A stretch of DNA of 64,000 nt from Takakia lepidozioides (GCA_030704615.1 CM060734.1:37944001-38008000); one strand, 5' to 3'. Positions 15,090-38,541 are shown, counted from the stretch's first letter. Notes: generated by a model not told the origin, from the sequence alone. A program made the numbers and translations.

Positions 15090-15190
15090 TTGAACCAACT
15101 AATCCACCTTATCAAAGTTCGTTTCACATATTGGTATTACTGGCAACGAAGCAGCCGACCTCCTAGCCCAACAAGGGGCCGCCCGGCCCC
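15090..15190 (+). pseudogene. RNase H C-terminal fragment (non-LTR retrotransposon type)
   Basis: With one frameshift it reads LIKVR.HIGITGNEAADLLAQQGA, the KxxxHxGxxGNExADxLA motif. Confidence 0.7.
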
Positions 15191-15338
15191 CAGTAGATCC
15201 CACGTCGGATCTCATTCACATTGCACACACCCACCCATTCTGGCTAATACACCCCATACCAGAGCCCCATGAGCCTCGACCAATCCGCAACCTCCTAACC
15301 GTACTTACTCGGGAGGCTAACAAACAAGCCTCGGCTTC

Positions 15339-16185
15339 TGTTAGTCACACCAAAATACACATCCAGAAATGGACGCAATCTGCAGTACTACATCATAAAT
15401 TATCAAACCACTTCTGGCACACCAAAGTCGTAACTGATGCACAAATACGACAAATTTTGAAATTCCGATACGCTTAATACATGGGCAACCAACGCAAACA
15501 CATTTTCTGGCCACGCCTATTCTCCCTCTTTCTACTCAGAGATGCACTCTCCGCTTCATTTCCCCCCAGTGATGCCAGCAGTCCTCCCAGAAGTAGTCCC
15601 CCTAGACCTCCCCGCTATTGTTTTTTCTACCTACAAGCTGTTCTAACCGCTTTCCTAACTAACCGTCATCCCTGTAGTACATGTTCCTTTTTCAGATGTC
15701 GTTTCCCCACCGTCGTTCCCTGCCAATGATAACTGTTCCCCAACTGTGTCGAGCTGTGACTGGCTGTATCAGGCTGTGCCGGGCTGTGACTGGCTGTGTC
15801 GGGCTGTGTAGGGCTGTGCGAAGCTGTGGTGGCTGTATCGGGTTGTGACTGGCTGTGTTGGGCTGTGTCGACTGTGCGAAGCTGTGACGGCTGTGTCTGA
15901 CTGTGTCGGCTGTGTCGGACTGTGACGGGCTGTGTTGGCTGTGCGAAGCTGTGACGGGCTATGTTGGTTGTGACGGGCTGTGTTGGCTGTGACTGGCTGT
16001 GTTGGACTGTGACGGGCTATGATGGACTGTGACGGGCTGTGATGGACTGTATTGGGCTGTGTATCTCCCCCCCTAAAGCCTGTTGCTGTCACCCCTAAGG
16101 CTCCTGTTGGTCTCAGTCTATGTAAAAATTAAGGGTACCCCACAGATCCCGTAAAAGCGTCTCAGTCCCAAGCAGCCCTCTAACA
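15339..16185. repeat. LTR copy 1 (TGTTAG...CTAACA termini) with internal GGCTGTG-type minisatellite
   Basis: Inverted 6-bp termini. 15521-16185 is a direct repeat of 24709-25335. Flanks gcttc/gtttg do not form a clean TSD. Confidence 0.75.
15743..16062. repeat. 9-10 bp minisatellite (consensus about GGCTGTGAC/GGGCTGTGTT); second array at 24931-25212
   Basis: Directly visible tandem units. The two arrays differ in unit number and order. Confidence 0.95.
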
Positions 16186-16257
16186 GTTTGTGTTTATGTG
16201 GTGTAGTGATGCATATACAAACCAAGTCTGTAGAGGTTGAACAATTTTGAACCAGGC

Positions 16258-18022
16258 ATGGAGGAAGATGTATTTCAAACTCCTCCAAACAGTCCTATTA
16301 ACCTGTTGGCTGAGGATGTTGAGGCTGGTCTGATAAGAGAGAGTCCAACTAGGACTATATTCTTGGATCCAAACTCCATTTGTAGGGCCATTGATTCAGA
16401 AACAAACACTCTTGCGGTGAACAATTTCATTTGGAGCTGGCTGTTGAGGCCCGACGAAACCGGGCTCCGCTACCTTCGCTGGGTGCAAAAGAGGCAAAAG
16501 CGCTTGCGAACTCCAGGAAAGCGGCAGAGCTTGCTCAGGCAGGAATTCAGGAGAAATTGAATGAGAAGAATAAAGGCCAAAGGAAAAAGACAAGGAAACA
16601 GGTGAGTACAGTAACACCCAAAAAACAGAAAACCATTGGGGCATCGGAGGAGGCGCAGGAGGGGACCCAAGGGAGTGACTCGGACGACGACTTTGTTCAA
16701 GGTCCTGCGACTGCTGTTGCTGCTACCAAGTCACCGGTCGTCCGGGTTCCCAAGTCAGTTCGGAGTGGGACTGGCTCTGCCAAGAAGTTGGCATTTGAGG
16801 ACGAACCTACACGGCGGTATTCGGCGGTGACGTTTACGCACAGGCCAAAGCTAGAACCTCCAACCATCATCCAATGCGTCAATGAGAGCTTCCTTGACGC
16901 TCTCGCTGCCAGGGCGAAGAAGGTGGCACACAACAAGTCTCTGGCGGAGCAGAAGGGGAAAGCCAAGAAGAGGGCTGCCGGTACAGAGCCTAAAGACACC
17001 CCTGATTTTGAAGCCATGATGGAATTCTTCACGGTTGTGAGCACGGATTGCAAGAGCACTCGGGGGGGGGGGGGGGGGTGGTGTTGTTGAGGTGGAGAGA
17101 GCTTGCGATATGATTCTCCTTGACATTCCAGATGGGGAGCTGCTGGAGGGCCTGGATGGTGTGCCCACCAGGAACAGGTTTACTGAGGACTACTGGAAAG
17201 CCGGGTTTGGGCTGGCGGGGATGCTCCTGGATGACGGTGGATGTGTGGTTGTCCTTGCCACAAGAGGGAAGACCACAGAGAATGCGGTGGCAAGATGGAC
17301 ACCGAAAAGTGTCACCCCGGTCCTCCTCAGAAAATGGTTCTGCATCAATACACAGGGGTTGTGAACAGAGGGCCAAAGTGTAAGTTATCAATCTATTGCA
17401 TTCACCTCATATTGTGGTGTATCTAAACTAGATCCTGGAGTTGATCCCTCTTTTGTTGGATGTGCAGACATTGGTGTTTGAGGCATATTGCTTTGTGAAG
17501 AGAGGGTCTTCTTTCAAATTCCGCAACGACGGTCGTCTTGTTGATGCCGCTGTGGACCCTGTTACCTACGATGTCCTCTACAACTATGTGCCCCACTCCA
17601 GTATGCCGAAGGACACAAAGACAGGCAAACCGTGGCAGTACAGTCGGACCCGGAGCCCTGCTTTCATCCAAACCCTCATGGAGACGTGCTCGGATGTCCA
17701 AGGGCGGATTCTGGACCTCACATGCGGCACGGGTAAGCCTTCACGTGCTCAGTTTGTCCCCTGGCCCGATTGCAATTGCATGCCGCAAGCTATTAACCGC
17801 CCGTTTTATTCCTCAGGTGCTTCAATGTGGGCAGGGACGTTGTCCGACAGGCATGTGTTCGCCTTCGAGCCAGATATTGCCCTCCACAACTCGGAACTTG
17901 CAGCGGCTGAACGTCTGCCAAAAGAGGAAGAGGCATCCTCGGAGGATGAGGAAAAATCCGAGAAGGAGCAGGGGGAGGAACAAGTTGGGATCGAGGCCGA
18001 GGAGCCCCCGGTGTACGAATGA
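16258..18022 (+). pseudogene. Beta-class amino (N4-cytosine/N6-adenine) DNA methyltransferase-like gene with two spliceosomal introns (17380-17467, 17733-17816); this copy is disrupted
   Basis: Motif-IV-like DMILLDIPDG, then LLDDGGCVVV. After splicing it reads RSPAFIQTLMETCSDVQGRILDLTCGTG/ASMWAGTLSDRHVFAFEPD, matching the N6_N4_Mtase C-terminal pattern (KP..L...I...S..G..VLDPF.GSG.T..A....R...G.E.D). Frameshifts near 16430 and at poly-G 17063-17078; in-frame TGA at 17362. Confidence 0.7.
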
Positions 18023-18148
18023 GTGGTTGCATTGTAAGTTGCCTCCAGATTTCGTGAGGCACCTCCCTTCGCTCTCTTATTTCATTGAAAACCCTTTCTG
18101 TTTCTGCTGGTATTGACATTCTTGAAGTGGATTTGTTCTTACTGTAAG

Positions 18149-18598
18149 ATGCCAAGTACGGTAGGAGGGACGTCTACACCGGAGTTCATGGGCAGGATGA
18201 ACGTGCCTTTTTTTGCCAGGGGGGATTTCATGCCTAGTCCAGAAAGGGACTACATCCTTCCTACTTATGCTGCCCGGCTTGCTTCGGTGTCCATTAGGAG
18301 GTGTTCCGAACCTAGTCGTGTACAACAGATTTTAGACGAGGCAAGCCTCAAGAAAATGAAGATGAGGGAGGAGGCAGCAGCTATTAGAGCCCGTCGGGCT
18401 CGTAGATTTGTCTTGGATTCTGCTGAGGAAAGTGGGGGAGAAGAGGCAGAAGATTCCCAGGAGGTGAGGTGGATAGTCCCCCAAGGAGAGGACGGCATTT
18501 TTGAGAGGCATACTGCAACCGATGCATCACAGAGCTCGGAGGATGGGGGGGATGAGGGGGATGAGGAAAAAGGAGGCCAAGTTCCTCGGAAGGTGTAG
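18149..18598 (+). CDS. Small hypothetical ORF between the methyltransferase and gag (helical, acidic C-terminus)
   Basis: Open frame of 149 aa, closely spaced with its neighbours; contains RRARRFVLDSAEESG. Confidence 0.45.
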   Translation: MPSTVGGTSTPEFMGRMNVPFFARGDFMPSPERDYILPTYAARLASVSIRRCSEPSRVQQILDEASLKKMKMREEAAAIRARRARRFVLDSAEESGGEEAEDSQEVRWIVPQGEDGIFERHTATDASQSSEDGGDEGDEEKGGQVPRKV

Positions 18599-18693
18599 GA
18601 GAGTAGTTCCCATTCCTGCTATGACAGTTAGGACACACTTGTATAGACGTGGCTTGCCACAAAATTTGCAATAAAATGTTGCATTTCATTGCT

Positions 18694-21600
18694 ATGACGA
18701 GTCCACATGACCCTATTTCCGTGCCTCCTAACCCTATTTCCGTGGACAGACAATGGCCCGCTCATGCTTTTTTTTTTCCCGCTCATGCTCATGCCGCTCA
18801 TGAAATAGCAGCCCCCTCTGGGGGGACAGGGAATGTGGGAAGTAGTGCAACTGGAGCTGGGAATACTATGAATATAGTGGGGCCAGTAGCAGGGAGTGCT
18901 CAGGGGCCAGCACCTGGTGGGAGTTCCACCACTACAACAGGTCCTCAAGGACTAGCACCCGTAGGGGGACCAGCACCTATCAGTGGGCAGAGTGTAGGGC
19001 CGCAGATGGCGGTACAACCATCCCGGGCAAAACCACCTTTTCCAATATATATAGGAAAATGGGATCCTGATGTACACATCAGCCAATTTGACCACATGTG
19101 TATTGTGAACAATGAAAATGGCGATGATGCCAAGATGAGACTGTTTCCATGTTCACTTATTAAGAAAGCAAGTGAATGGTATGCAAGATTCCCTGATAAT
19201 CATTTCCTGACCTGGAATGGCCTTAGTACGGCATTCCGAAATAGGTTCAGGACAAGCAAAACTGAGGACGAAGTGTATGGAAGTTTACAACAGTTGAGGC
19301 AAAAGAAGCATAAAACTGTTGAAGAGTACATGGAAAAAATGGAATTAATGATGAAAAAGCTGGCCGCTGTACCAGCACCAGGGTTACAGAAGACTTGGTT
19401 TGTGAGTGGACTAAGACCAGAGTTGCAAAAGAAAGTGGATAGGCTACCACATAATACAGTGGAGGAGGCATTTGAAACAGCTAACAGAATTGAGCAATTG
19501 GGAATGCTCAAGAGAGAGAAAAGGGAGGATGAGGACTCTGGGGTCAGACGAGGAAGAAGAGCAAGAGCTCAAGAGGAAGAGTGAGAAGAAGGAAAAGTTG
19601 AAGAGGGATAACTATGAGAAAAGATTGGAAGAAATCTCGAAGAAGTATGCCACAGAGGCTGCAACACATTGGAGGAAGGGTGTTTGGTGTGCAAAATGCC
19701 AGAATGAAGGCCATACCACAGCTGAATGCCACATGAAAGAGAAACACTGTACTATCTGTAAAATGGATAACCATTCCACTAAGAATTGTTATTACAACAG
19801 AAGGACAGCTGCAAGAGAACCTAGGCAAGTAAGGGTGCATCAAGTGCAGCCCCAGCCAAGAAAAAATAGTGATCAGGACCACTATGGTAGGCCTAGTGGA
19901 TATAACAATGGTATGGAAGGGAGAGGTAATCCAAGAGGGAATTACCAAGGCAATTCCACGGGCAACTATCAGGGTAATCCAAGGGGAATTATCAGTCAGG
20001 GAATCAGGATTAGAGAAATAATCCCAAAGCAGATCAAGGGCGAGGACCCAATGGTGAAGAACTGTGTTACTACTGTAATCAGGCTGGACATCGCAAGGCA
20101 ACCTGTCCATTCTGGATCAGACACCAGAATGAAATGAGAGCTCCTGTGAATGAGGGCCCAATGGTGGCAGCTCACATGGTTAGGCCATGTTTTGTACCGG
20201 AAGTGAGTACAATGATAGTGACCAGAAGCAAAGCTAAACTAATACCTCCAGTGGATGAGGAAGAGGATGGTAATGAGGATGGCAGTGATGTGCCTGAAGA
20301 TGATGAGGCTTGGAGAGATGAGAAGGAACTGCACAAGGAAGTGGCTGATACCATAAGGGAAATGCTAAAGAATACTGATATCCTTATGGCAGATTCTTCT
20401 GATTCAGATGGAGAAGATGAAGAGAGTGAAGATGAAGTGAAGAAAGAAACTGCACAAGTGCAGAGTAATGAAGGGATTCTGGCTGAAATAATATGTCAGA
20501 CCAAAGCTGAGATTACCATTGGACAGCTATTGGCTGTGGCACCTCATTGTAGGCACAGGCTATATCAAGCAATTAATCAGATTGCTCATGTGACAAAGAA
20601 CACAGACCTGAACAGCAAGGTGACAAGCTATAATGTGAAGCCAGAAGGGCGAGAAACAGTCATGGACTTTGATGATTCTATGCCAGTAATCCAATTGAGA
20701 ATTGGAAGCACAGACTTGACTGATGTACTGATAGATGGAGGCTCAGGAGTGAATATCATGACAGACCAATTAAGGCAAAAGCTTGGTCTGAGTAGTATGA
20801 AACCAGCCCCATTCACAGTAACAATGGCAGATCAGAGGAGTGTACAGCCTTTAGGCTTGATAAGAGGAGTTAAGATACAGATTCAAAAGATGATCTTTAA
20901 GATCACAGTAACTGTGTTGAAAATGGATGATGTTATGGAAGCTTACTCCTTATTGCTGGGTCGACCATGGCTGAAACAGACCAGGGTATTCCACAACTGG
21001 AATTCCCAATTACTGACTGTGCATGATGGGAAGCACAAGAAACAGGTCACCACTAAGAAATCTAGTAGGCTACTTGCTACCGGAAGACCTCGTGGAGTCA
21101 GAGAGTATGACCGGAGGGGAGGACTTGATGAGGAGCAAGAGGCTACCATGTTTGCTGCACACCCAGAGTGGGAGCAGGTTGCAGAAATGCAACTGGAAGG
21201 CCTAAGTTGTTTAAAAGGTATATGTTGTGGTGTAGTAACAGCAACACCAATTGAGGATGAAACAAGCAGTTACCCACCACATTTCTATGAGGAAAGAGAG
21301 GGAGAAATGGAAATCCTAGAAGAACCAGCCACTGTAAATTTACAGGATGAAGTAGTGACTGGTTGGACAATCACAGCTAATGAGCAAGTGAGAGAAGTGA
21401 ATGTGGGAACTGAGGAGGAACCGAGAATGGTGAAAGTGGGGGCTGACTTGGAGCCATAATTCTTTGAGGAAGCCAAGAGTTTGTTCATCAAATACAAAGA
21501 TATATTTGGACCTGAAAGGGATACCACCTGAGATCTGTCAGCATAAGATTGAATTGGAACCAGGGTCAGTACCAATCAAACAGGCAAGGTACAGAATGAA

Positions 21601-24210
21601 TCCCAACTATGCATAGAAGGTTGGGGAGGAGATCAAGTAGATGGCTGAGGTTAAGTTCATATACCCGTTAGAGTATACAACATGGTTGTCACCCATTGTG
21701 ATAGTTCCCAAAAAGAATGGTAAACTGAGAGTGTGTGTGAACTATAAGAAGTTGAATGCTTGTACAAAGAAAGATCCCTTCCCTTTGCCATTCACAGAAG
21801 CGGTGCTGGACACTGTGGCAGGCCATGAAATGTACTCATTCATGGATGGCTTCAGTGGGTATAACCAAGTGCAAGTGGCAGAAGAAGACCAGGGAAAGAC
21901 AACTTTCATCACAGACTCGGGTGCTTATGCATACAAAGTCATGCCTTTTGAACTTTGTAATGCACCAGCAACTTTTCAGAGAGTGATAAGTGAATCTTTC
22001 CATGAGTATCTGGATGATTTTATGCAGGTGTTCTTAGATTACTTCAGTGTGTACAGTTCTAAGAATGAGCACTTGCATAAATTGGAGTTATGTTTGGCCA
22101 GATGCAGGATGAGAGGTCTGGGCCTGAATCCAGAGAAGTGTACTTTCTGTGTGAACTCAGGGGTACTTTTGGGACACATTGTGTGTAAGAGGGGACTGCT
22201 TGTGGATCCTAGAAAGACAGAGGCTATTAAAGCCTCTCCGCCACCAGGAAATGTTAAGAGTCTAAGGAGATTCCTTGGACAAACTAGTTATTACAGAAGA
22301 TTTGTCAGACGGTATGCACAGATAGCAGCACCATTGAGCGGGCTTCTGAAGAAAGATGCAGTGTTTGCATGGACAGCTGACTATCAATAGGCTTTTGAGG
22401 AACTTACATTGTCAATAACAACTACACCTGTGCTTATTAACCCTCACTGGCATGTAGTATTTCATGTTCACTGTGATGCCTCAGGAGAAGCATTGGGAGC
22501 AGTGTTAGCCCAAAATGTTAAAGGAAACATAGATTCACCTGTGTACTATGCTAGCAGATTGATGAACAGTGCTAAAAGGAACTATAGCACAACTGAAAGA
22601 GAAGCATTGGCAAAGATTTATGCAGTCAAGAAATTCAGGCATTACCTATTGGGAAGAAGTTCATGTTTTATGTGGATCATCAGGCTCTGGTTTATCTGGT
22701 GAACAAGCCTTTGATAAGTGGCAGGATAGTTAGACGGTTAATAATCTTGCACGAGTTTCAGTTTGAAGTTGTTTACAAGCCTGGCCGTTTGCATCTTGTG
22801 GCAGATCACTTGTCACGCCTACCAACAGGAGAGGCCGCCACGGGAGTAGACGACCAACTACCTGATGTGAGTTTATTTGCAGTGGAGGTGCAGGGAAGTG
22901 CAGATGATTGGTTAGATTGGCAGTGACCAATCAGATACTACCTTACTCATGGTCAGTGCCCACCTAGTTATGGGAAGGAGCAGAGGAAGAGAATAGTTAT
23001 CATGGCTTTACCTTACACTATGATAGGGGGCAGAATGTATAAGCTAGGACCTGATGGAGTTCTTAAACGATGCTTGTACCACCATGAAGTAGATAAAGTT
23101 TTGGAGGAAGTTCATAAAGGAGTGGTTGGAGGTCATTTTGGAGACGAGACTACCAGTAGAAAGATACTACTTGCAGGTTACTGGTGGCCTACTTTGTTCA
23201 AGGATGTACACAAATATTGCAAGAGTTGTGATGAGTGTCAGAGGCTAGGACCATTGTAGAGATCTGGGAAGATGGCTTTGCATCCTATGATGCCTACTGA
23301 ACCATTTCAGAAATGGGGACTAGACTTTGTTGGACCAATTAATCCACCAGCCAGAAATACACAGAAGAAGTATATAATCACAGCCACTGATTATACTACA
23401 AAGTGGGTGGAAGCTAAAGCTCTGAGGGACAACACAGCTAAGTCTACAGCAAGGTTCCTGTATGAGAACATACTTACATGATTTGGTTGTCCCCTGGAAT
23501 TTATCAGTGACCAGGGAAGTCACTTCATTAATGAGACCATAGAACGATTGACAAAAGAGTTCATGATTGTGCATAGGAAGAGTATATCCTATTACCCACA
23601 GGGTAATGGGCAGGCAGAGGCTAGCAACAAAATACTATGTATTATCTTGGCTAAGATAGTTAATGCAAACAAAACCGATTGGGATACAAAGCTGCTGACA
23701 GCTTTGTGGTCATACAGGACTTCATATAAAGTCACCACTAAGTATACACCATTCCAATTAGTTTATGGTATGGAAGCTTTACTTCCAGTGGAGTTCTTGT
23801 TACCTACCATGAGAACTGAATGGGGAAGGAGAGGGGAATTGGAAGATTCACTTAAGGTCAGGAAACATGAATTATACCATGTGGAAGAAGTACGTGCTGA
23901 TGCAACAGACAACATGACCAGAATTCAGATGAAGAGGAAGGATTAATTTGATGAAGGTAAATTAAAGACTTTTAAGATGGGAGATTTGGTACTGTGGTTG
24001 TAGAAGAAGGGAAAGACTAAAGCTTCTAAGCTTAAATCATCATGGAAAGGACCTTATATCATACAAAAGATGTAAGATAACAACACCGCCATGATACAAT
24101 CTATTAACAAAGAGATGTTGGGAAGAGTCAATGCCAATAAGTTGAAGGGATACAGTGGTATCCATGACAAACCATTGCGGCACGATTTGCATGTTGAAAC
24201 ACAAAAATAG
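18694..24210 (+). mobile_element. Ty3/Gypsy gag-pol (non-chromovirus-like), decayed: Gag with three CCHC knuckles, protease, RT, RNase H, integrase
   Basis: Retrotrans_gag-like KMRLFPCSL..KASEWY. Knuckles CAKCQNEGH, CTICKMDNH, CYYCNQAGH. Protease LIDGGS. RT WLSPIVIVPKKNGKLRVC, MDGFSGYNQ, NAPATFQR. RNase H CDAS, NYSTTERE. Integrase [25 protein letters not shown]. Many stops and frameshifts. Confidence 0.95.
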
Positions 24211-24684
24211 TCACGGGCTACACCGGGGATACCAACGGAGTATGGAGCACTTGTCATTAAGCCGAGTGTGTATGGCCAGGGCGGAAGGTATGTCGAGCGG
24301 CTTTTACTCACCCATCCCTTCGCTATCCGAGGTGGGAACTCCAAGATAGAAGAGTTGGAAATCTCTAAGCACTCAGCCCGCTCAGAACAATCAGTCATGA
24401 CCTACAGCTAGTGTATCATGGGGGTGTTTCCTATTTGTATTCCTTCCCGTATTCATGTTAGCTAGTTACCTTACTGTTGGTATTTAAGTATCAGATTGCT
24501 TCAGCAATCTATCGGATTCCATCAACTCATCCATTCATTCCACAGCTTCACTCAGATTTCTCTACACAGTGTGAGTATGAAGTATGTATCAGATTAATAT
24601 CTATCAAGTATCAGGCTGAAGCCATGGAGTCTCTAATCTGCTCTACATTACAACTCTACTGCTTGCATTCATCAAGCATCAACA
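24192..24684. repeat. Possible additional LTR-like segment (TGTTGA...TCAACA)
   Basis: Inverted 6-bp termini and a TATTTAA box at 24481. No TSD, no PPT and no second copy seen. Confidence 0.3.
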
Positions 24685-25335
24685 GATCGTTCTCCTCCTA
24701 CTCCGTGCTCTCCCTCTTTCTACTCAGAGATGGGCTCTCCGCTTCATTTCCCCCCAGTGATGTCAGAAGTCCTCCAAGAAGTAGTGATCCCTAGACGTCC
24801 CCGCTCTTCGCTTTTTCTACCTTCAAGCTGTTCTAACCGCTTTCCTAACTAACCGTCATCCCTGTAGTACACGTTCCTTTTTCAGATGTCGTTCCCCCAC
24901 CGTCGTTCCCTGCCAATGATAACTATTCCCCAGCTGTGCCGAGCTGTGACTGGCTGTATCAGGCTGTGGTGGGCTGTGAATGGCTGTGTAGGGCTGTGTC
25001 TGACTGTGTCGGCTGTGACGGGCTGTGTTGGCTGTGCGAAGCTGTGATGGGCTGTGTTGGACTGTGATGGCTGTGACGGCTGTGTCGGCTGTGCGAAGCT
25101 GTGACGGGCTGTGTTGGCTGTGACTGGCTGTGTTGGACTGTGACGGGCTGTGATGGACTGTGACGGGCTGTGACGGCTGTGTCAGGCTGTAATGGACTGT
25201 GTTGGGCTGTGTATCTCCCCCCCTAAAGCCTGTTGCTGTCACCCCTAAGGCTCCTGTTGGTCTCAGTCTGTGTAAAAATTAAGGGTACCCCACAGATCCC
25301 GTAAAAGCGTCGTAGTCCCAAACAGCCCTCTAACA
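24456..25335 (-). repeat. LTR copy 2, probable 3' LTR of the minus-strand DNMT element (left boundary uncertain; homology to copy 1 starts at 24709)
   Basis: Begins TGTTAGAGGGCTG on the - strand directly after a polypurine tract. A TGTTAG at 24456 could be the other terminus. Confidence 0.7.
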
Positions 25336-25353
25336 TTTACCCCTTCCCCTCTC
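25336..25353 (-). promoter_or_regulatory. Polypurine tract (PPT)
   Basis: The - strand reads GAGAGGGGAAGGGGTAAA and abuts the TG of the LTR. Confidence 0.75.
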
Positions 25354-25535
25354 AAAAAATCGTGTCCTCACGGTTTACTATTTGGGATTTGGAAACCTTT
25401 GTGAGCGAGCACCATTCTGACGGTAAGAGTCTCGTGAAGGACTCTGCGTGCGAGCCCGAGGTCTGTCACTGGTTGACGGATTGAGCACTACCTGGAAATG
25501 TCAGTCCTTCCTTTGGCTGATATCGAGGTAATCTT

Positions 25536-28500
25536 TCAGGCATAGGAGACCCCCGTCGCTTCTTCTCTGCCATCTGCATAGTCCTCTGCCATGTCAAAAG
25601 AGTTCGCTGAAGAATCAGTAGTATCAGAATCCTCATTGCCTCTCAGGTGTTTTAACGGCCAAACTTTTTGTGGAATCCTCTGGGGCATACAATGTGGTCC
25701 CACCATGTTTGGAAGTTTAAATTGTAAAACTTGTTGTAAGCGCTGAATTGCAAAATTGGTGAAGACCATGAACTCATTGTATGTCCACGTGAGTGGTGTA
25801 CCAATGACTTGTGAATTGTGCAAGTTTTTCCATGCCTCATGGCCCTTAAAGAAAATATCGTCAGGCCCGAATTTCTGTGTTGACAAATTGTTCCAGGCCG
25901 CATGAAACCATGAACGAAGTTGGGAGTCCTTTTGCATCATCACCTTTGCATTATAGAGGTACATATGAGATGGCACTGAAGGTAAGACCCAATGATCCCC
26001 ACTGGAATAACTCAGAAAGCGCGATTGCATCTTCTGCTGCTCAATGTGATAACGTGCAAGAGAACAAGCAGCATAGTATAACCCGCAGCCCATGACAATA
26101 CTTGCTACCTCATTGGTCTTGGTATAAATGTACCCATGTACAACTTGGAAGGCAATTAATTCCTTCAACATGGTACTTGCCTCATGCCAGTACCTCGCAA
26201 AGTGATGATCCTCAATGGGTCGATTGTTCGGAAGAACCTTAGTCTTAGTTGCCACTGGCAGCCAAATGCGCATGATCTGGTAGTAATGTGCCAACGACTG
26301 TGGAGGACTAAATTCCCTCCGAGCCAAATCCAACACAATGGGAATTTGGTTGAAGGGCATAATCATAGCCCGACTGTACTCCCGTGTAGCATGAGTTTTA
26401 GGTGGGTTAAAATCAGCATTCCCCCATACCTCAGGCTGTGGTGGCTGTGGTGTGGCTGTAGTAACAATAGAGTCAGCTACTGTCACAGTGCCTTGTTGTG
26501 GTCTTGGTGACACTGGCTCTTGTATCAGTGGCATCTCCTGCACCCCCTTCGAAGAAGACTGAAAAGTCAAAATTCTGGCATGTAAATAAGAAGCCACTAG
26601 CTGCTCCTCAGGTACAAAGACTCTCTTGTTGATATTTGAAGTGAGGTCCTCCACCTGAGTCTGCAGGCCGTCTACATCCTCCTGTAACTCCGCTATCCTA
26701 CTATAGAAATTGTCTATAGTAGTTGTGGCAATGTTCTGTACCTGCAGTCTGAGCTCATTCATCTCGCCTTGGGTGAGCTTCCGTGGTGCTTTGCCTTCCA
26801 CCGCCCCTTGTGCTAACCAGACCTGCATAAGGTGGTTATCCACCAAGTTGCTTGTGACACCCCTGAGAGTCTGCTCCTTTGTGAGCCTGTACACATCTAT
26901 CTGCTGCTGTAAAGCCTCCATGCGCTTCGCATGAGGTTCAACCAAACTCGCATATGCAGCAGCCAGATTATTGGCTTCCTTCCCAGCCTTGTTAGCCACA
27001 GAGAGTTCATTTTTATTGGACATGAGCGTTTGTTGCAATTCCAGGATGTACCTCTCTTGGTCAGCTTCAACCTGCCTGTATTGCTTGAAAGTATTCTCGT
27101 TGCAACAGATTGTATTCTTCATATCAATAATGAGTTTCGTCTACTCGAGATTATCAGCCTGTGCCTTCATACATCTTTCCGCTTGGTTGTTAACTTCTAA
27201 TGTAGTTTGCTCAAGCGTAGTTGTTAGTGTAGCACATTGTATGACCATCCTATCATGCACTATCTGCAACTCCGTATGTAGTGCATTCACTTCTTGCAAC
27301 TTGCTTTCATGCTTCACCTGCATTTGGTATAGATGTTGCTTATGTGCTTCGTGCAACTGGTCCTGCGCGAGGCCTGCTTCAATCAATTGTTCCTTGGCCA
27401 TTTGCAAAGCAGCTTTTGTACTCTCTAAGTCTTGCTGTATCTTGAGAGTGACCTCCTCATCGACCTTGTTTGCACACTCAGTGGCAAGTTGAGCCTCAAA
27501 CTCCTTCCTGAGTTCCTCCCTCAAAGCTGCCAATTGGGTAGTTGGAACATGGGATTTGACATAAGTGCCCAACAAATTAAGTGTCATGCTTATGGAACTC
27601 ATAAGCATGGCCTGTTGAGGGTCATCATGGTGAGCTTGCTGCTGTTCTCCCTGATCCTCAACAGTGTGATGCCTCACGAACCATTCAGGCCATTGCCCCA
27701 CCAGATTTTCTTCCTGAACCACCTCATCCGCTACAGGTGCTGCAGTGTCTTGACATTCTACCTGTGGTACCTCCGTCAGAGGTGTGGGTATTACAACAAC
27801 AGCAGGGTTTCCCCTGGACAACCGCTGCACCTCCAAAATCACTCTTTCCCTGACCAAACCAGAATTTTCATAGAGAAGGTCCCCCTTCTCAATTTCTGCC
27901 ACCACCTGTTCTGTAGTGGGGATATCTAACCATTCTTTCTCCAAATCAATTATTTGTGGTGGAACTGCATGGACAACTTGTGGTAACTCTGTGACAAGCC
28001 GATCATCTGGCTGTGATGGCTATGATACTGAAGTAACTTCCTCTTCCCTCTCTGAAGGCCCTGCTTCCAATAATAGCAGCTCTCTGTGCTGCTGTGCCCC
28101 TTCCTGCACAAGAGCTTGGGAAACATTATCATGCGGTTTTCGTGAAGCCAGTGGATCCGTCACTACAATCTTTCCCCGCCTCTGTCTTTTAGACTGGGGT
28201 TGCCCTGCCAGTCCACCCTCACTGTGCGAGGAGCCTGGCTCTTCCATTGCAGTGGTTTCGGCCTCAAACAGTCCCATCTCTTTCCTTTTTCTCGCATCAA
28301 GTATGCACGAGTCTAGAATAATTTGTGCAATGATTGGCCTAGACACTATGATAGGAGACTTTGCGGCAGTGCCTTGTAATCTCTTCATCTCCTCTACCAG
28401 TCCGTTGTACATTATGTCCGCCCAAACGACCTCTTCTCCTCTCAGGGCTTTGAGTATTTCCTCTGTGAAGGATCTGCTCAAATACTGTTGGTTCTGTTTC

Positions 28501-28720
28501 ATGGCAAAAAGAACGTTCAATACCTGGCCTACCTCCCTTAGCCCTGGGTACACGGCCTTGGTACAAGCATAACCCTGAGTTTTAAAGAAACTCCCTTCTT
28601 GGAATAAGTCCCCTATTTGCAGTCTTGCCCTGTGCTCCTCCACATGCACCCGACCTGATGGCAATTCAAACAATTGCTGTAGGTATAGGGGAGTAACTTC
28701 TAATTCAACTCCCTTCACCA
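25536..28720 (-). pseudogene. Large retrotransposon 3' accessory ORF (about 1060 codons): plant-transposon-protein-like N-terminus, long coiled coil, globular C-terminus
   Basis: ORFs 28020-32342, 27141-27944 and 25536-27122 share one frame, separated only by single TAG codons at 28020 and 27141. The VKGVELEVTPLYLQQLFELPSG pattern resembles Athila/Tat-type accessory proteins. Confidence 0.65.
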
Positions 28721-31700
28721 TTGTTGCTCCTGCCTGTACCGTCTCGGTAGGCAGAGAGACCGTCAAGGGAAGTGCACTCCGCACTCTACGTTGCTCAGCC
28801 ATAGCCAAGCTGACAATCCAGGTCAAGCAATTGAGATCCATTGCTTGCCCCAACACCTGACGACGTGATGCCTCAGAAAGAGAAGGCACCGCCGTGGTCC
28901 CAGTGGAAAACCCCATAGCCCGCTCTCGCTCGTCGGCATTAGGCTCCACTAACTGCTGCAACTGAGCATCCCACAGGAGGCCAGGTCCACCATCCCGAAA
29001 AGCATGGGATCCTGGGAAGCTGAGCAGTGTAGGTAATGCTGCTCGTGGTTGACCCACCCTGTTGACCACTGCCAAAGGCAAACGGTCATCGTGTCTCACA
29101 CGTTGAGACTGCCTTCCTGTGTCCAAAATGCCATCCACGGTGAGGTGTGCTGGCCGCTGCACCCCATCAAATGCACGCTTGAGCAGTGCGGGTGGCATCA
29201 AGTTAGTCCACCATAGTCGTGGACGATGAGCCCGTGACCCCACTGCAGCTGCATCCAGCAACACTGCTGACCCAAGCCACGACCGGACTTGATGCACACT
29301 GGCCATCACCCTGGCCCGAGAATCACCCATCAGTGGTACATTCTCCAAGATGTATGCTGGAGATACAGCTTGATGAAGCTGCAAGCAGCGCAAAATCCGC
29401 ACCATCTCCCAAAACAGACCCGTCCTCGAGTCTCGCAATCCATTGCCATGCCCGGCTGATGAATGCCCTTGGCAGGGCCAACCTGCCACTATCAGATCAA
29501 TGGAGCCAACCTGCTCCAAATCTTGCGTCCCCAACAAGGAAATGTCTGCTGGCAAGGCTTGTTGGTATCCACGAACTGCAGACACAGGCAACAAGTCAGG
29601 GTACTGCTGTACCAACTGAGCCACATGGCGCAGTGAGACGCGTCGTGCAGTCTCATCCCTCTCCACATACAGGTAACGCCTTACCCGCACACCTGCCTGT
29701 AGCACAGCAGCCAATCCGGTGCTGATCCCGCCAAACAAGTCCAGAAGACAAATGCCTTCATCCGGCCGCTGCCACACAAGAGGTGTGGTGTCCAATGGCG
29801 ACAACTGAGGTGGCCCTGGTGCAATCACCGCACTCTCCTCCTCTCCTGACGGTACAAAAGCTTCTTCCCAAGCTTGTTGCACCCGTCCATCAGCAGCTTG
29901 CTGCAAATCCTTGCTCGTACCCCACAACGGAGTGTGAGCAACCATGGCAGGCAACTCCGCCGTACCATGCATGTCATCCTGCTCTGCTGGAGGTGGCACA
30001 TCCTCTGCATGGGCATTGCCTTCCAGCAACTCTCCAGGCCAACTAACGGCAGCTGTGAAGGCGGCTAGTGTTGGCATCTTGCCCCGCTGGGCAGCTGCAA
30101 TACCCCCAATGAATGTCACAGGGAGCTGTGCACGGCGACCATCCCCTGACTGCCATCCAGGCCTGTAGGATGCTGACTCCTCCCAGAAATCCAGGGTGAA
30201 GCCCATGGGGTATAACACTGCCCCACCAACGAGGACATCGTAAGAGACCGCGTCTGTCACAATGGCCTTGGCTCGCATCACTGAGCCATCTACAGGATGA
30301 TCCGGCTGCAGTCTAATAGCCAACTGATGCCGTGTCATGCCGCGAGCCTGCTCTGATCCTCCCAGAGATGTCTGTATCTGGAAAGGACAAGGCTCCATAT
30401 CCGCCTCCATGAGGCCCAAACCTGCAATAGCAGCTCTGCCCAACATCAGTGGCTGAGCTCCTGAGTCCAACAAGACCCGCAGTGGCCGGTACTTCTTGCC
30501 TGCCGGTCCACTCAAAGTGAAAATGCCTCCCTGGTTGTCTAACAAGACAACTCCAGGTGTCACCATGGCGCGCTCAATGGCTGGCCTAGCTGGTAGCTCC
30601 GTCAACCTGGCAGCTGCAACTTGCCATGGCGCAGCCGTGGCAGTCTTGACCCTCAAATCCGAGGATCCCTCTGCCACTACACCTTCCACTAACTCCGTAG
30701 AAGATGAAGTGACCTCCCCACTCTCACAGAGTGTTGCTGCTAGTCTGAACACTGCAGCTGGTCTCACCCCCGGCGTCGCAATCATTGTTGCCGAGAACAG
30801 TGGGGCCTGACACACAGAGGTGGCTGCCCCCAATAACACACCGGCCGCACTAGCCTTGGCAGCAGGAGTCAATGCTGCACGTGTAGCTCTCCCCAATGGC
30901 ATAGTAACCTCCGCCTCGGTAACAGTCGGGCGAGAACTAGGTGCTTTGGATGGCGTCGACACAGTCTCCGCCAATGTGAATGACTGAGGAAGCCTTGCCT
31001 GACGGCTTGCCTCCCCACGCTGTGGATCCAATTCCACCTCTGCACCTCGTGGCTCAGGAACTCGTGCTGCTCCTCGAGTCACGGCTGCAACAGACTCCAC
31101 CTGCTCTAGTGGTAGTGCTGCTCCGCACATAAATCCCATGCCTCCCATATCTCCTCCCTCAGGAGCAGGAGGTGGACCATCCCGCCTGGGAGCCGGTACC
31201 GCCTGAGCTATAGCCATGGCAGCGAGCCTTTGCTCTAGCTGCTGAAGCCGGTTGGCCATGCCTTGATCAACGCCCTGACCTCCGCGTCCTTGGCCATGTT
31301 GAGCTTGCCCTTGGCCTGCACCTCGTGCCCGACCACCTCGTCCTCTCTGGGCTGGTCCACCTCGCCCCCGGCCACCATTGTTCCCTTGGAACTGGCCTGG
31401 GCGCAACTCAGGATGCAAGTCATAACACTGGGCATCTCCATGCCCATACTTGCCACAATGCCCACACTGCAACTGTGCAGGCTGTGCTTGTGCCGGCCTT
31501 CTGCCACTCTCTGGGCAATCTCTCTTGACATGGGGTCCTCCACATGTCCAACATATCACCCCTGGTTGCTGTTGGCCTGCAAAAGATGCCACGGGCCTCT
31601 GCACCTGAGGTCCCCTGTAAGCTCCATGGAACTTGGGCTGGGCAACCTTGCCCCCCTGACCACGCTGTTGGGCAGTCCCTTGTGCTTGTGGGCTGACAGC

Positions 31701-32707
31701 TGTGCCCCGTACAGGCATGTCCTTGCCAAATCCAATTGTAACAACTCGCTCCTCCACCATGTTGAGCTCAATCCGCTCAGCCAGCAGAAACACATCTGCT
31801 AATGTGGGTTGGGCCGCTTGTAACAGGGTTGCATCTCGCACCCTTCTCTTGAGCTCCTTGTCCAGAATTCCATACCAAAACTGGATTGCCTGAGCTTCAG
31901 TAACCCCTTGGGTCACACTTATCAAGCGCCTCATACGAGTGTACGCCTCTCGCAGGCTCTCACTGGGTTTGCGCTGGAAGTCTTGCAAACTTCGCAGCTT
32001 CTCTGTCCGTACACCTTGGTAGTTCCTCCGCAACTCCTGGAAGAACTCCACCACCGGGTTGAATCTAGGCACATGTGTTGTAGTTGTGGCAGGAGGAGTA
32101 GCAGCACCTTTTGAACTGGTACCACCTGTAGAAGTACCAGCACTACCTGCTCCACTACTAGTGCTGGCAGTGGGAGCTATTGGTACTGATGCAGCTACTG
32201 GTCGCGTCGTGCCTCGAGTAATGGAGACGTAGTCAGGTGACCAATACATCCTCCACTCCTCAATCTCTGCTTCATGTCCTCGCCTGAACTCGTGGTAATC
32301 GTCCATAGGCGGCCTTCCAAATGCTGGAACAGTCCCTTCCACGCCATGAATGGGGTGAATAGCTGTGGATTGCGCATCTGCTGCAAATCACACCAGCTGT
32401 CGAACTCCTGGATAAAGTCATCCAACTCGATTGTGCCCACAGCTCCAGAGTACCTACGAGGCCCCTTGGTAGCTCCATACATCTCCTCCATGTCGTCCCA
32501 CAACAATGGCGAATGAAAGTGCACACCTGTTGATGAAGCCTCCGAGTCTGTGTCTGACTCTACAGTAATTGAGGGTGGCGGTGAAGGTGGTCTGAACCGA
32601 ATACCTCGTCTTGTGAACCCACTCTCACTGTTACTGCCTGTAGCCGTACTCCCCTCACCACCCTTGGGTAACTCCGTAATGACACTCACAATGTGCACCT
32701 CCTCCAC
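28720..32707 (-). mobile_element. Gypsy-type Gag / aspartic protease / C5-cytosine DNA methyltransferase polyprotein (one frameshift near 32310; no RT, RNase H or integrase)
   Basis: Gag FQRKPSESLREAYTRM. Knuckles CWTCGGPHVKRDC and CGHCGKYGHGDAQC. Protease VLLDSGA (about 30460). DNMT motifs I LLDLFGGI, II YVE, IV AGWPCQG, VI LENV, VIII HRPRLWW, IX ERERAMGF, X VLGQAM (about 29757-28800). Confidence 0.93.
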
Positions 32708-33225
32708 GTGACACTATAAGGCTCTAGTACTAATCTAATAGTGACACGGGTGGGCACCTGTTGCAGTCTAAGGGTCATATCCCGATGGCTCAGGGCACCT
32801 GCACCTGCATCCACCGCAAGAACTCCTATGGTTGGCTGGTCATCAACCCAGCCTCACCATAGAAGAAACACTGGTGGTCTTGCTGGTCATCACTCCAGCC
32901 TCACCACCGACAGCATACTCTAGGATTGACCGGTGATCAAATCCGGCCTAATCCCTATGAAAGCAAGCGCCCACACAAAACCAACATGGCGCACAGTCAA
33001 GCATGCAGGTGTTGGGGGGATCCAAACACAAGAAATCAAAACATCAACACCCCCACACCAAAATCCAGCAGCAACGCTGATCCTGCAGAATATCCCAGCC
33101 CAAAACCCCGGACTGACTGGCCTCCACCAAGAGAGGCTTTGGCAACTACGAGTATAAGGTAATGAAAATAGTACAGAGATAGAGGGGAAGAATAGAAGCC
33201 CGCCCAAGCAAGATCTAATCCTGAT

Positions 33226-33975
33226 CTATGCTATCAACTTCCAGACTTCTCTCAAAGTGCCTCGCTCTGCTTGATGGTAAGGTGTAGGAGGTATATCTAT
33301 GTCCAGAAACCTGCCACTAACCTTGTCCCAAGCTACAGTAGCTCGCTCTAACCAACCCTCCTCCTCTTTCTGCCAGGTAGAGACAAAGCAACACTCTGTT
33401 ATCTCCCGCTCACTGAACACTAAAGAAAACAAAGGTAGGGTCTGATAGTCTCTCAACTCAAAAGCTTTGAGACGGTTGCGGGTGTCCTCATTGCGAATGA
33501 CTGCATCTCCTTCACGCACAACAAACATGTCATTGCTGATGAACCCCCGCTCGTGGTTGCCCTGTGCAGAGCGTATCCGGCTGCAACCATGTCTGATTGC
33601 ACAAACTTGTGTAGCTCCTGCTCCTCTACTCCAGTACACCACGGCCTTGTGGCTGAACACCTTGGTCCCCGGGGCTGTCTTTGGCTGCGTTCCAAGCCTA
33701 GCTTTCACCCACTTTGGTATTTCACCTACAGCTGCAGAACTGCTGGCTCCAACAGAGTTCTGACTGTCCAAGGCGATATTGAGGCCCTCAATGCCAACTA
33801 CAGCAGTCTGTTGTCTACTGCTAATGCCTGACTCCCAGTATGCAATCAACTCGTCCAACTGTTCTCCACTCAAATCAGTCTGAGTTCCTTGGGAAACATA
33901 AATCCTGTCCCCTTGTGTGCACAGGCTAAGAGAAGAGACCTGCCCTTCAATTACGTCCTCATTTCCCCCAGCCAT
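33226..33975 (-). CDS. Hypothetical 249-aa ORF upstream of gag in the DNMT element
   Basis: Intact ATG-to-stop frame, co-oriented with gag and about 520 bp upstream of it. No recognised domain. Confidence 0.55.
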   Translation of the reverse strand: MAGGNEDVIEGQVSSLSLCTQGDRIYVSQGTQTDLSGEQLDELIAYWESGISSRQQTAVVGIEGLNIALDSQNSVGASSSAAVGEIPKWVKARLGTQPKTAPGTKVFSHKAVVYWSRGAGATQVCAIRHGCSRIRSAQGNHERGFISNDMFVVREGDAVIRNEDTRNRLKAFELRDYQTLPLFSLVFSEREITECCFVSTWQKEEEGWLERATVAWDKVSGRFLDIDIPPTPYHQAERGTLREVWKLIA

Positions 33976-34812
33976 ACAAGGAGTACATCCACAGATTTGT
34001 CTCTAATATAGACCAGCACAGGTTCTAGAAACAGGATTGTGGATCTTTCATGGCACACTCACACTCTAAAAATTCCATAGATTTTTAGCAGAGTCCCAAA
34101 AACAGAAACTAGATAGATAGATAGGTAGGTTAGATAGGTAGATAGGTAGATTTCCCCTTTCTGCAGCTATCCCCTCAAAAACTGAGTCAAACGGAGCTCA
34201 TTTGACAAAGATATGACCAACCAGGCTCTTTAAACATTTAAATTAGATCAAAAAGGCTATTTTTTTTTTTTTTTTTTTAACACCAAAACGCTTTTGCCAT
34301 TACAACCTGTTCCCAAGTTATCTACGAGTTCCCGAGGTCGTTCCCCTCCAGGATTCTCCAGGCACCAAGAGCTCATTAATTCCAAAACTCGACCTCAGTT
34401 GGGTGGGGTATTACTTGCTTTTCTCTGCGCGTGGGCCTGCCTCCTCGAGCTTTCACGACGGCACGGCAGCAGCCATGTTTATGGCACGCAGGAAGATTCA
34501 GAAGCAGAAGGGGGCGATTCTTTCCAGTGAACCCTCGAGAGACGAGTCCCGTGTATCAGCAGGTGCTGGAGATGCTCGAGATCTAGAATTGCTGTGAAAT
34601 GGGCTTCCAGTGCTCGCCCTGCGAGGGCTTGGATTGCCTTGTGTGGATTGCCCTCTTCAGAACAGCTTGATGCAAGGCACTGTAAGCTGCTGATTCGCTA
34701 TCCAGTGATGGAAAGAGTGGTGTGGCTGGGGTGTCAATAGCCAGTCGTAGTCATTCTTGTCTATATCAGCATTGAGCAAGTCGCTCCCCACTCATTTTCG
34801 CTTGTGGAAAGG

Positions 34813-35139
34813 ATTGTGGAAGACGAGCGCGTTGCCATCAAAATGGCGGAGTTTGTTCGATTGAACACACTCGGTGTATCCCAGGATGCACAAGCCTGGG
34901 CAACCACCTTACTCCGGACACTCATGACTGGCTACGCGCAAGTGGCTGTCGAGTACGGGGGACTGATGGACGCGGCGAAGCAGCCCTTCTTCCATTATGG
35001 CCAGGCGGTGATGGAGGAGAGATGGAAGAAGCTGCGGCAGAAGTTGGAGGGCAGCACGCGCTTCGCTTTGCCTGATTATGACCCCTTACACTGTCCCTTC
35101 TTGGGAAAGATGTTTCGGCCCAACCCAGCTTTTGTATGG
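34813..35139 (+). pseudogene. Tryptophan aminotransferase-related (TAA1/TAR)/alliinase C-terminal fragment
   Basis: KMAEFVRLNTLGVSQDAQ...FFHYG..VMEERWKKLR...RFALP....C.FLGK..RPNPAFVW matches the Alliinase_C region. No other exons recognised. Confidence 0.75.
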
Positions 35140-38162: not shown

Positions 38163-38541
38163 CGTAAAAACCTTCAGATTTTTTGGCTTTGTTAAAATTA
38201 GGGCTTCCCTGACAGGAATTTTCCCTCGCACGTGATTTTTGCCCCGGGACGGGGGCTGTAATCCCAGATTATGGAATCTGTCCCTTGGCAGGCTGGCATA
38301 TTTTATGGATCTATTACTCTTAATATTGGGCAAACGATTTTCAAACTTGGGCAGCGAGCTACAATGACGTGACAATGAAACCCTAGTGGCAACACAGAGG
38401 AGAAACGGGCACTGTCGAAATCGGGCAGCTTCGTTTCTTACGAAAGGTAAAGCCCTCGCCCTTGGACTTTCCTGGATTTTCGACCCCTGCCCTCGGGACA
38501 GGCGCCTCAAATCCAGGAAAGTCCTCGGCCGAGGGCTTTAC
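38163..38541 (+). repeat. Dispersed ~380-bp element with a terminal long hairpin, copy 1
   Basis: Near-identical inverted copy at 63478-63823. Stem GTAAAGCCCTCG..GGACTTTCCTGGATTT / AAATCCAGGAAAGTCC..CGAGGGCTTTAC at 38447-38541. Confidence 0.85.

Follow-up and report, generated by a model that had tools for sequence, protein, structure and literature searches.

Two methyltransferase genes side by side in a decayed Ty3/Gypsy region: probable nesting of two unrelated lineages rather than one mobile unit

Between 15.3 and 34.3 kb of the window (the whole stretch of 64,000 nucleotides that was analysed), an amino-methyltransferase-like gene on the plus strand and a C5 DNA methyltransferase (DNMT) on the minus strand both lie within LTR-retrotransposon sequence, which raises the question whether one mobile system brings two DNA methylation writers together or whether independent elements were inserted into one another. 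We favour, with moderate confidence, a stack of nested insertions, now decayed, that derive from two unrelated Ty3/Gypsy lineages, over a single mobile unit; both lineages are likely to be very abundant, in a genome that is likely that of a bryophyte-like plant. A sequence-only reading had described two units with different methyltransferases sharing one LTR family, and a good part of that layout stands, i.e. two repeats in the same orientation, a plus-strand gag-pol, a minus-strand gag, protease and DNMT, and accessory ORFs; the LTR limits given there and a third LTR did not hold. As it had also stated, an extra ORF is located upstream of gag in both units (149 aa in the plus unit, 249 aa in the minus unit), and RT, RNase H and integrase are confined to the plus unit.

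The left LTR had been placed from 15339 on, where a TGTTAG occurs. This start was rejected because the TGTTAG belongs to an open RNase H-like frame (15103-15474) of a LINE fragment (15103..15521, plus strand) that adjoins the truncated LTR, and LTR homology begins only at 15522. The Pfam RNase_H match of the fragment is weak (E 0.12), and further copies of it are found in contigs (X1 record 4). The left LTR itself, copy B (15522..16185, minus strand), has lost about 380 bp at its 3' end, one terminus being absent. Copy C (24291..25335, minus strand) is complete (1,045 bp, TG...CA), contains an internal 10-bp tandem array and is the 3' LTR of a minus-oriented element, its start being abutted by a polypurine tract (25336..25353, minus strand; 17 of 18 positions are purines). 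An apparent likeness of the continuation of the plus element to this array was put down to chance. Outside the array, the two copies are identical at 327 of 346 aligned positions (5.5% divergence). No third copy was found by a repeat search of the window, so that the LTR proposed at 34280 had to be dropped. Both copies are minus-oriented and hence antisense to the plus gag-pol; no purine tract precedes copy B, no primer-binding site (PBS) follows copy C, no target site duplication (TSD) is present and the flanks differ. Thus they are not the 5' and 3' LTRs of the plus unit in place. Viewed as an intact flanked element, the plus unit would have no primer site in its 5' LTR, a purine tract outside its 3' LTR and no TSD; the primer-site motif is in fact absent from the whole window, even with up to 3 mismatches allowed. 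In other copies of this LTR, seen in contigs, the same end leads either into a PBS-like TGGCGACC motif (57 and 48 contigs) or into flanks that are unrelated (32 and 12 contigs).

The contigs stem from four runs (X1-X4) of one sample of one study, possibly the source of the assembly; they are short, and their summed depth is not to be equated with copy number. Both joins between an LTR and the plus unit (element A) are rare in the contigs of this sample. At 24290 the summed depth drops about 400-fold and other sequence continues from both sides: the depth of 24276-24287 is 4,778 in X1 (1.8e6 and 2.5e6 on either side) and 1,030 in X3 (1.1e5 and 1.7e6), with loose ends on either side in both runs, and behind 24284, 12 contigs run on with other letters. 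Deep troughs also occur at places that are merely diverged (e.g. 9.9e3 at 20994); therefore it is the loose ends that carry the argument. At 16186, near-identical copies have different upstream DNA and contigs begin exactly at this position; X1 record 5 and X4 record 30 match 16186-16415, with 36 and 193 non-matching letters, respectively, those of X4 lying upstream of 16186. LTR ends are furthermore found joined elsewhere in element A (16186 to 19426; 21836 to 24291). Copy B probably inserted into the plus element independently.

These observations bear directly on the idea that the entire 15.3-34.3 kb, or its LTR-A-LTR part, is a composite transposing as a unit. Two direct LTR copies do flank element A and depth is high across the region, but with LTRs antisense to A and 5.5% diverged, neither primer site nor tract inside, no TSD, two rare joins and a dead pol in A, we regard this as extremely improbable. 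Neither of the two joins accessible to a test lends support to a composite uniting both writers, and the contig evidence at 16185|16186 and 24290|24291 together with the RT tree (below) speaks for the other option of the sequence-only reading, nesting or rearrangement of independent families. Nor can this copy of the plus unit act as a helper, its pol being interrupted by at least 11 stops in frame as well as 4 frame switches. Could some of the joins instead be assembly chimeras between near-identical repeat copies? The copy number is very high and, among the 16 contig pieces listed (6,913 further ones exist), none spans 24290 by 31 letters on each side; this reading is nevertheless highly improbable, as the joins coincide exactly with LTR termini, which is what integration would produce, the LINE/LTR join is followed by X4 record 29 (15333-15551 with 1 difference, 30 of its letters being LTR) and the window contains no N.

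Element A encodes a Ty3/Gypsy gag-PR-RT-RH-INT (18676..24290, plus strand; Pfam domains in that order), which is decayed and cut near the end of the integrase by the LTR insertion. Its 149-aa acidic ORF (18149..18598, plus strand; an ORF call), located between the methyltransferase gene and gag, has no Pfam match at E 10 and no match in the loci of 80 relatives. In a quick tree made up of the window RT, 30 metagenome RTs and 30 RTs of DNMT-bearing polyproteins, the window RT clusters with the metagenome RTs (SH-aLRT 100), apart from those of the DNMT-bearing polyproteins. Four relatives of the plus RT that have LTR pairs carry a primer site of the TGG(C/T)GA(C/T)CAT type, and 13 of the 80 relatives' loci contain this type of site on the sense strand; the TGGCGAC motif is presumably a tRNA-Arg primer site. 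In relative L049 a purine tract is followed by TGTTAG. Moreover, an accessory ORF is present in 38 of the 80 loci (57 of 59 matches on the RT strand) and aligns weakly with 28727-28350 of the window, within a coiled-coil-rich accessory ORF region of 1,062 codons and 2 stops (25536..28727, minus strand). Homology between the N-terminal part of the latter and the ORF that follows integrase in relatives of the plus unit is likely, judging from a profile alignment by hhalign (score 24.3 over 119 columns, HH probability 9%; 60 shuffles reached at most 18.6). A differently cut piece scored 16.9, below one unrelated piece of the window at 17.9, and hmmsearch with the same profile missed the accessory ORF. 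The stretch from the LTR through the purine tract to the accessory ORF (24291-28727) resembles the 3' end of a plus-lineage element that inserted in antisense. One LTR family common to both units is not supported at the two joins either; the LTR most likely comes from the lineage of the plus unit, with both copies being antisense insertions into it.

The minus unit comprises gag (2 zinc knuckles), protease and a C5 DNMT (28728..32491, minus strand) in an ORF without stops and with one frame switch near 32310. Its DNMT domain (PF00145, E 1e-12) is intronless, lies in the polyprotein frame and contains motifs I, IV (PC), VI (ENV), VIII and X, including an RxR. RT-RH-INT is absent downstream of the DNMT in this copy and present in the DNMT relatives P0008, P0023 and P0034. 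Sequence similarity assigns this piece to the Gypsy-DNMT type already described from streptophytes, whose RT lineage differs from that of the plus unit. A scan of viral contigs with the DNMT alignment gave 30 loci with 26-50% identity over short stretches. The 249-aa ORF upstream of gag (33226..33975, minus strand; an ORF call) has no Pfam match and one PHROG match that is not meaningful (E 0.056). At its far end the unit meets an alliinase-like gene remnant (Alliinase_C at 34741-35286) at a T run (34259..34278); neither LTR nor PBS is present there, a scan of the leader found no PBS-type motif beside an LTR-like end, and the leader resembles neither the LTR nor the 5' part of A. No LTR or PBS was seen for the Gypsy-DNMT relatives, and theirs may resemble those of A's lineage.

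DNMT and accessory ORF are joined in frame at 28725..28732 (minus strand), where a few bases could fit either side; a fusion in frame would be expected in 1 of 3 cases by chance. Nine of the 72 DNMT relatives stop aligning exactly at residue 1194, relatives P0004, P0008 and P0023 go on into RT past this point, and the 234-aa accessory part beyond the junction has no counterpart at E 1 in any of the 72. Contig X2 record 14 departs from the window sequence at 28732; at 28730 there is no loose end among the 24 listed. From 28696 to 28700, each of the four runs loses 25-54% of its depth, a drop that indel variants could cause. The DNMT element (D) and the minus-oriented element ending in copy C show similarly slight decay, with 0 and 2 stops as opposed to at least 11 in A; like the in-frame fusion and the lack of a listed loose end at 28730, this counts against the reading preferred here.

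The families could still be nested if LTR, tract and accessory ORF were native to Gypsy-DNMT and the minus unit a single internally deleted element within A. The continuous frame of 1,428 aa, the similarly slight decay of its DNMT and accessory parts, a summed depth of the same order over 25.3-33.2 kb and the smaller number of events required would agree with this, but primer-site type, LTR start and accessory ORF match the relatives of the plus RT, whose lineage is separate from that of the DNMT-bearing RTs, and the accessory part is unmatched in the DNMT-bearing relatives; we therefore hold it to be unlikely. Quite unlikely, in our estimate, is a variant of the composite idea, a family-wide non-autonomous chimera with gag-PR-DNMT, in which the DNMT/accessory fusion would be moved by RT and integrase of the A family via an A-family LTR and tract, with the corollary that C5 writer and amino-methyltransferase would share particles. 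The in-frame fusion with bases fitting either side and the high summed depth on both flanks of the junction are in line with such a chimera; against it stand the depth drop in all four runs, which resembles the approach to the rare 24290 join, the different continuation of X2 record 14 and a minus leader unlike the LTR and the 5' part of A. The fuller version, a DNMT3-carrying non-autonomous chimera spread by LTR and tract of the family with the beta-class gene, so that 5mC and 4mC/6mA writers would be passenger and helper, is very unlikely.

In the preferred reading, nesting of two lineages, element A (16186-24290, plus strand) would be the middle part of a Gypsy element of non-chromoviral type, with a small ORF and a spliced amino-methyltransferase gene of the beta class in front of its gag. 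One 1-kb LTR family would later have inserted into it twice, separately and in antisense: at 16185|16186 (copy B, truncated since) and at 24290|24291, where 3' LTR, purine tract and accessory ORF would be the remnants of element C. Both insertions are likely members of A's own lineage, i.e. a case of self-nesting; for plant Gypsy elements, nesting and same-family 'autoinsertion' are documented in the accessible text of PMC6911290. Element D, a Gypsy-DNMT element, would have become joined to C at about 28727, probably by a local insertion followed by a deletion that took D's RT-RH-INT and 3' LTR. As has been proposed for Gypsy-DNMT3, an intact D family might methylate its own cDNA by means of a DNMT3-like enzyme made as part of its polyprotein. 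An intact A family might express its amino-methyltransferase from a spliced transcript and package the unspliced, intron-keeping RNA; the protein would then act on the DNA of the element itself, by marking or by binding it.

The beta-class (N6_N4) amino-methyltransferase-like gene spans 16258..18022 (plus strand; 5' exons uncertain), with core exons at 17089-17379 (motif-IV strand, DIPD), 17468-17732 (ending in motif I, ILDLTCGTG) and 17817-18022. The predicted introns of 88 and 84 nt are GT..AG and keep the frame. By exon order, the motif IV strand is N-terminal to the SAM-binding motif I, as in the beta class (PF01555). The window copy is broken by a poly-G run (about 17062-17078) and a stop at 17362. 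Atlas features point to N6_N4_Mtase clusters (score 0.93), and for both exons to methyltransferase folds. A full HMMER search gave 14 matches, 12 of which are true homologues (from metagenomes), several breaking at the same two intron positions; P0083 and P0086 were dropped as unrelated repeat proteins. Homologue P0082 matches PF01555 (E 7.6e-6) and aligns with the SAM-binding part of DpnA-type structures (E 0.002). Of 16 aligned members, 4 match PF01555 at E up to 1, the best with 26.5 bits against a curated cut-off of 26.7. The catalytic motif of the window copy is non-canonical, DIPD in place of (D/N/S)PP(Y/F), and sequence L057 has DVPN at the matching place (placed by eye). The window exons have no match in Pfam, PHROGs or, by sequence, the PDB; word-index protein searches and scans of viral, metagenome and prokaryote contigs found nothing, pairwise comparison of exons 2 and 4 with L057 did not rise above shuffles, and structure models of exons 3-4 are poor (mean pLDDT 31 and 44), with nothing at E 0.001 in a fold search. 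Altogether, these indirect lines of evidence give a good probability that a spliced amino-methyltransferase gene of bacterial type (beta class) resides in a Gypsy family of land plants, and this family is likely a very abundant one. A link between methyltransferase and gag as a family trait is suggested by the similar depth of the two and by one joint (17867 to 18666, depth 398); no methyltransferase profile match is found upstream of gag in the 80 relatives' loci, 17 of which hold at least 2.5 kb there.

The juxtaposition of the two methyltransferase genes is most likely ordinary nesting and should not be presented as a two-writer element. If the beta-class gene with its conserved introns does belong to an abundant land-plant Gypsy family, it would represent another independent capture. 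Early land plants would then have, besides Marchantia DN4MT1, a further candidate source of 4mC or 6mA, and a cargo gene with introns would have survived reverse transcription. Methyltransferases of retrotransposons in print, as far as the accessible text goes, are C5 DNMTs or Dam-class domains; in the literature accessible to our search, no description of a retrotransposon-borne beta-class gene was found.

Among known systems, KnitGypsy-Dnmt3 and the streptophyte Gypsy-DNMT3 elements, as described in the accessible part of PMC5890265, resemble the minus unit in having an intronless C5 DNMT with catalytic motifs in the Gypsy gag-pol frame. They differ in that the window copy lacks RT-RH-INT and LTRs of its own and is fused to a foreign-looking accessory ORF, and the host of KnitGypsy-Dnmt3 is Klebsormidium whereas the window likely comes from a land plant. 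Relatives of the minus piece include Marchantia polymorpha proteins such as Mp_4g09160 (55% identity over 1,194 aa). Element A, in turn, resembles the non-chromoviral plant Ty3/Gypsy elements (Athila/Tat/Ogre), which are long and have tandem arrays and additional ORFs on the 5' or 3' side of gag-pol; Ogre and TatIII typically use tRNA-Arg primer sites, and liverwort Tat Z2 elements have no extra RNase H. Unlike in element A, methyltransferase cargo is not reported for this superclade in the accessible text of these two sources (PMC6317226, PMC13468544). LTR retrotransposons with amino-methyltransferases, as in element A, are known as EpiLTRs and DAM-LTRs; according to the accessible text (bioRxiv 10.64898/2026.05.21.726589), EpiLTRs pair an adenine with a cytosine methyltransferase inside a single element, the enzymes are Dam-class with an NPP motif, EpiLTRs have a chromodomain, and DAM-LTRs are reported absent from Streptophyta. 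In the window, the amino-methyltransferase is a beta-class (PF01555-like) enzyme encoded by a separate spliced gene, with DIPD and no Dam-class NPP motif, and Pfam finds no chromodomain among 72 window ORFs; the two enzymes reside in different elements, on opposite strands, with separate RT lineages and rare joins. No protein named DN4MT1 or N4CMT is among the matches of the window gene in protein searches, and the TSPPY motif of DN4MT1-type 4mC writers is absent from it. Marchantia DN4MT1 (bioRxiv 10.1101/2021.02.12.428880) and bdelloid N4CMT (PMC8885841) are nevertheless similar to it, as far as the accessible text of both describes them, in being beta-class with the catalytic strand before the SAM motif, N4CMT also in having introns; both are encoded by host genes, have (T)SPPY and have been shown to produce 4mC, whereas the window gene has DIPD and lies in a retrotransposon.

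Self-comparison of the region yields a single pair of repeats, in the same orientation (15521-16188 and 24709-25338), and no third copy. Single-base inspection puts the right copy at 24291-25335 (1,045 bp), with TGTCGAG at its left end and CTAACA at its right; on the minus strand, its start is directly adjoined by a purine tract (17 of 18 bases). In other copies of this LTR, a fine-scale contig comparison found a primer-site-like TGGCGACC motif behind the far end in 57 and 48 contigs, and unrelated flanks (agreement 0.35-0.38) in 32 and 12. Purine tract and motif together indicate a minus-strand reading direction for the LTR. The left copy has the same start (16185) and breaks off at 15522, where it meets a LINE-like frame; the position 15339, from which the sequence-only reading had the LTR begin, falls within that open frame. 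With their 10-bp array left out, the two copies show 19 differences in 346 positions, and their four flanks contain no target site duplication. This CTGTG-based tandem array is of variable length, with ~32 units at 15744-16061 and ~28 at 24943-25211. Since the copies are antisense to the plus unit (the decayed Gypsy element at 16186-24290) and enclose neither a primer site nor a purine tract, they cannot act as its LTRs.

Nine public runs cover part of 15300-25299; the four best, all from one sample of one study, were used as short contigs, and their reads may be the source of the assembly itself. Summed contig depth, which is not equal to copy number, amounts to 3.8e5-1.1e6 over 16.5-33.8 kb in run X1, where a contig from the unique flank reaches ~60; every part of this stretch is clearly highly repeated. 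At the right join, depth in X1 goes from 1.8e6 (24144-24155) to 4,778 (24276-24287) and back to 2.5e6 (24312-24323), and at the corresponding places in X3 from 1.1e5 to 1,030 and 1.7e6. As a trough also occurs at a diverged spot (20994; 9.9e3), the evidence at 24290 lies in the two-sided loose ends: behind 24284, twelve contigs carry the plus unit on into other letters, and loose ends of the TGGCGACC type are present before 24290 in three of the four runs. At the left join, two contigs (1 and 5 differences) align from exactly 16186 onwards, and one of them (X4, record 30) carries another 193 letters of different sequence upstream of this position. Among the 15 joints listed out of 494, LTR ends are also connected elsewhere in the plus unit (16186 to 19426; 21836 to 24291). 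Therefore, the joins at 16185/16186 and 24290/24291 are insertion sites and not the normal structure of a family.

According to Pfam, the plus unit contains gag, protease, RT, RNase H and integrase in Gypsy order; at least 11 in-frame stops and four frame switches interrupt its coding region. Scanning metagenome contigs with its RT gave 127 relatives, of which 80 loci were used, many of them one element in several assemblies. LTR pairs ~11-13 kb apart occur in seven loci, representing four distinct elements, and each of the four shares its primer-site type with the motif that follows the window's LTR in other copies. This type is found on the RT strand in 13 of the 80 loci (a looser pattern gave 17 sense matches, four of which were set aside); in L049 a purine tract is followed by TGTTAG. 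A conserved accessory ORF is present in 38 loci, almost invariably on the same strand as the RT. With hhalign, the N-terminal portion of the accessory ORF on the window's minus strand aligned to this ORF in 119 columns with a score of 24.3 (E 0.004), compared to a mean of 11.6 and a maximum of 18.6 for 60 shuffles. A differently cut piece reached 16.9 over 102 columns, second of 69 window pieces behind a 15-column match at 17.9, and hmmsearch with the relatives' profile missed the window ORF. These scores weakly suggest that the two ORFs may be homologous. Primer-site type, LTR start and accessory-ORF likeness combined make it likely that 24291-28727 is the 3' third of an element from the plus unit's own lineage; nesting within one family is described for plant Gypsy elements in excerpts of PMC6911290.

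The minus unit's polyprotein has its best relatives among Marchantia polymorpha proteins, which points to a bryophyte-like land plant as host. The gag-PR-DNMT frame (28728-32491) comprises 1,194 codons without a stop, with one frame switch near 32310, and all C5 catalytic motifs are present. In a quick tree with midpoint root, RTs from 30 DNMT-bearing relatives group apart from the plus unit's RT, which clusters with 30 metagenome RTs (SH-aLRT 100). The 5' end of the unit stops at a T run (34259-34278) without LTR or primer site; an alliinase-like gene remnant (34278-35289) is cut at this run, and no 5' part of that gene was seen left of the nest. In nine of 72 relatives the alignment ends exactly at residue 1194 (nt 28727), three (P0004, P0008, P0023) continue past the junction place into RT, and none matches the 234 residues after it. 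In each of the four runs, depth at 28700 is 25-54% below that at 28696, and a contig departs from the window sequence at 28732. We lean towards an in-frame fusion at 28727 that is local to this locus, against one occurring more widely, for which the similarly low decay of both parts and the lack of loose ends at 28727 among the 24 listed would speak. In another genome, a Gypsy-DNMT fragment adjoins a 5'-truncated RT on the opposite strand (L054:106-998 and L055:3-892, two assemblies of one locus), an independent case of such a neighbourhood.

The window is eukaryotic and rich in repeats, with Pfam matches to LINE pieces, DUF7810, polyphenol oxidase, CACTA transposase and SURNod19. A LINE (endonuclease, RT) with direct duplications of 3.5 kb and 0.9 kb (82-87% identity) occupies 1-5024, and an inverted LINE fragment lies far right (61498-61811). 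Ahead of the DUF7810-family host gene (8768-13093), which is spread over three frames or exons, lies a 389-aa frame whose N-terminus resembles a membrane anchor. MITE-like elements of ~380 bp with an internal 99-bp palindrome are found in opposite orientations (38163-38543, 63478-63823). Further features are a polyphenol oxidase gene in several frames (41234-43119), a 110-bp tandem array (47128-47672) beside the CACTA transposase (48185-51108), a SURNod19 gene (58283-60551) and, w/o Pfam match, a block (53353-57655) of direct repeats 0.6-1.3 kb long (70-96% identity), partially resembling 43591-43738.

The plus unit's amino-methyltransferase gene has three core exons, separated by two frame-keeping GT..AG introns (88 and 84 nt). 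In the predicted spliced product DMILLDIPD precedes ILDLTCGTG; we take these stretches to be motifs IV and I, hence beta-class order. As leads only, the Atlas places exons 3-4 close to N6_N4_Mtase clusters (0.93; 24 of 30 matches); for exon 2, its neighbours are unnamed and methyltransferase clusters. Of 14 matches from a full HMMER search, 12 are real (29-52% identity); the eight looked up are all unnamed or 'hypothetical' records. By eye, at least six homologues lose similarity directly past the motif-I stretch and four start it after a Gln codon; these breaks coincide with the window's two intron places, which points to a probable eukaryotic family with conserved introns. One homologue (P0082) matches PF01555 slightly below cut-off (E 7.6e-6) and DpnA-type structures with E 0.002. 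The window copy is broken (poly-G run; stop at 17362) and its motif IV departs from the canonical (D/N/S)PP(Y/F); we make no claim on its activity or target base. Three observations would tie the gene to gag beyond this locus: similar contig depth, the absence of an LTR between the two and one joint (17867 to 18666, depth 398). The family profile matched a single one of the 80 loci, L057 (E 5.6e-5; same strand, with the accessory ORF ~2.5 kb upstream), and none upstream of gag, where at least 2.5 kb of sequence is present in 17 loci. L057 also contains decayed, correctly ordered segments resembling exons 2 and 4, with pairwise comparisons not significant; this homologue (15900-16900) lies 3' of pol and accessory ORF in a relative of the plus-unit lineage. 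The locus suggests that the association may be older than the window genome and variable in position. As expected for cargo, the gene differs in composition from gag-pol (52.5% versus 43.7% GC; CpG observed/expected 0.60 versus 0.21).

The sequence-only reading had weighed a composite or helper-dependent two-writer system against nesting of independent families. Both joins being insertion sites and the RT groups being separate, nesting is very probable. The parts are largely as it described them, but the two methyltransferases very probably sit in separate, unrelated, broken elements; for our full reconstruction of the nest we claim moderate confidence. What deserves to be followed up is the cargo, a spliced beta-class amino-methyltransferase gene. 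We found no description of it in the literature searched, to which large supplementary tables and bioRxiv supplements that could bear on it did not belong, nor in excerpts of PMC4738411, PMC8885841, PMC12344493, PMC12885004, PMC13468544, 10.1101/2021.02.12.428880 and PMC6317226 (the latter including five supplementary files). The minus unit is of the known streptophyte Gypsy-DNMT type, as portrayed in excerpts of PMC5890265. Compared with the EpiLTRs of bioRxiv 10.64898/2026.05.21.726589, as far as its excerpts describe them, the locus is not an EpiLTR; functionally, it resembles the usual debris of nested Gypsy elements.
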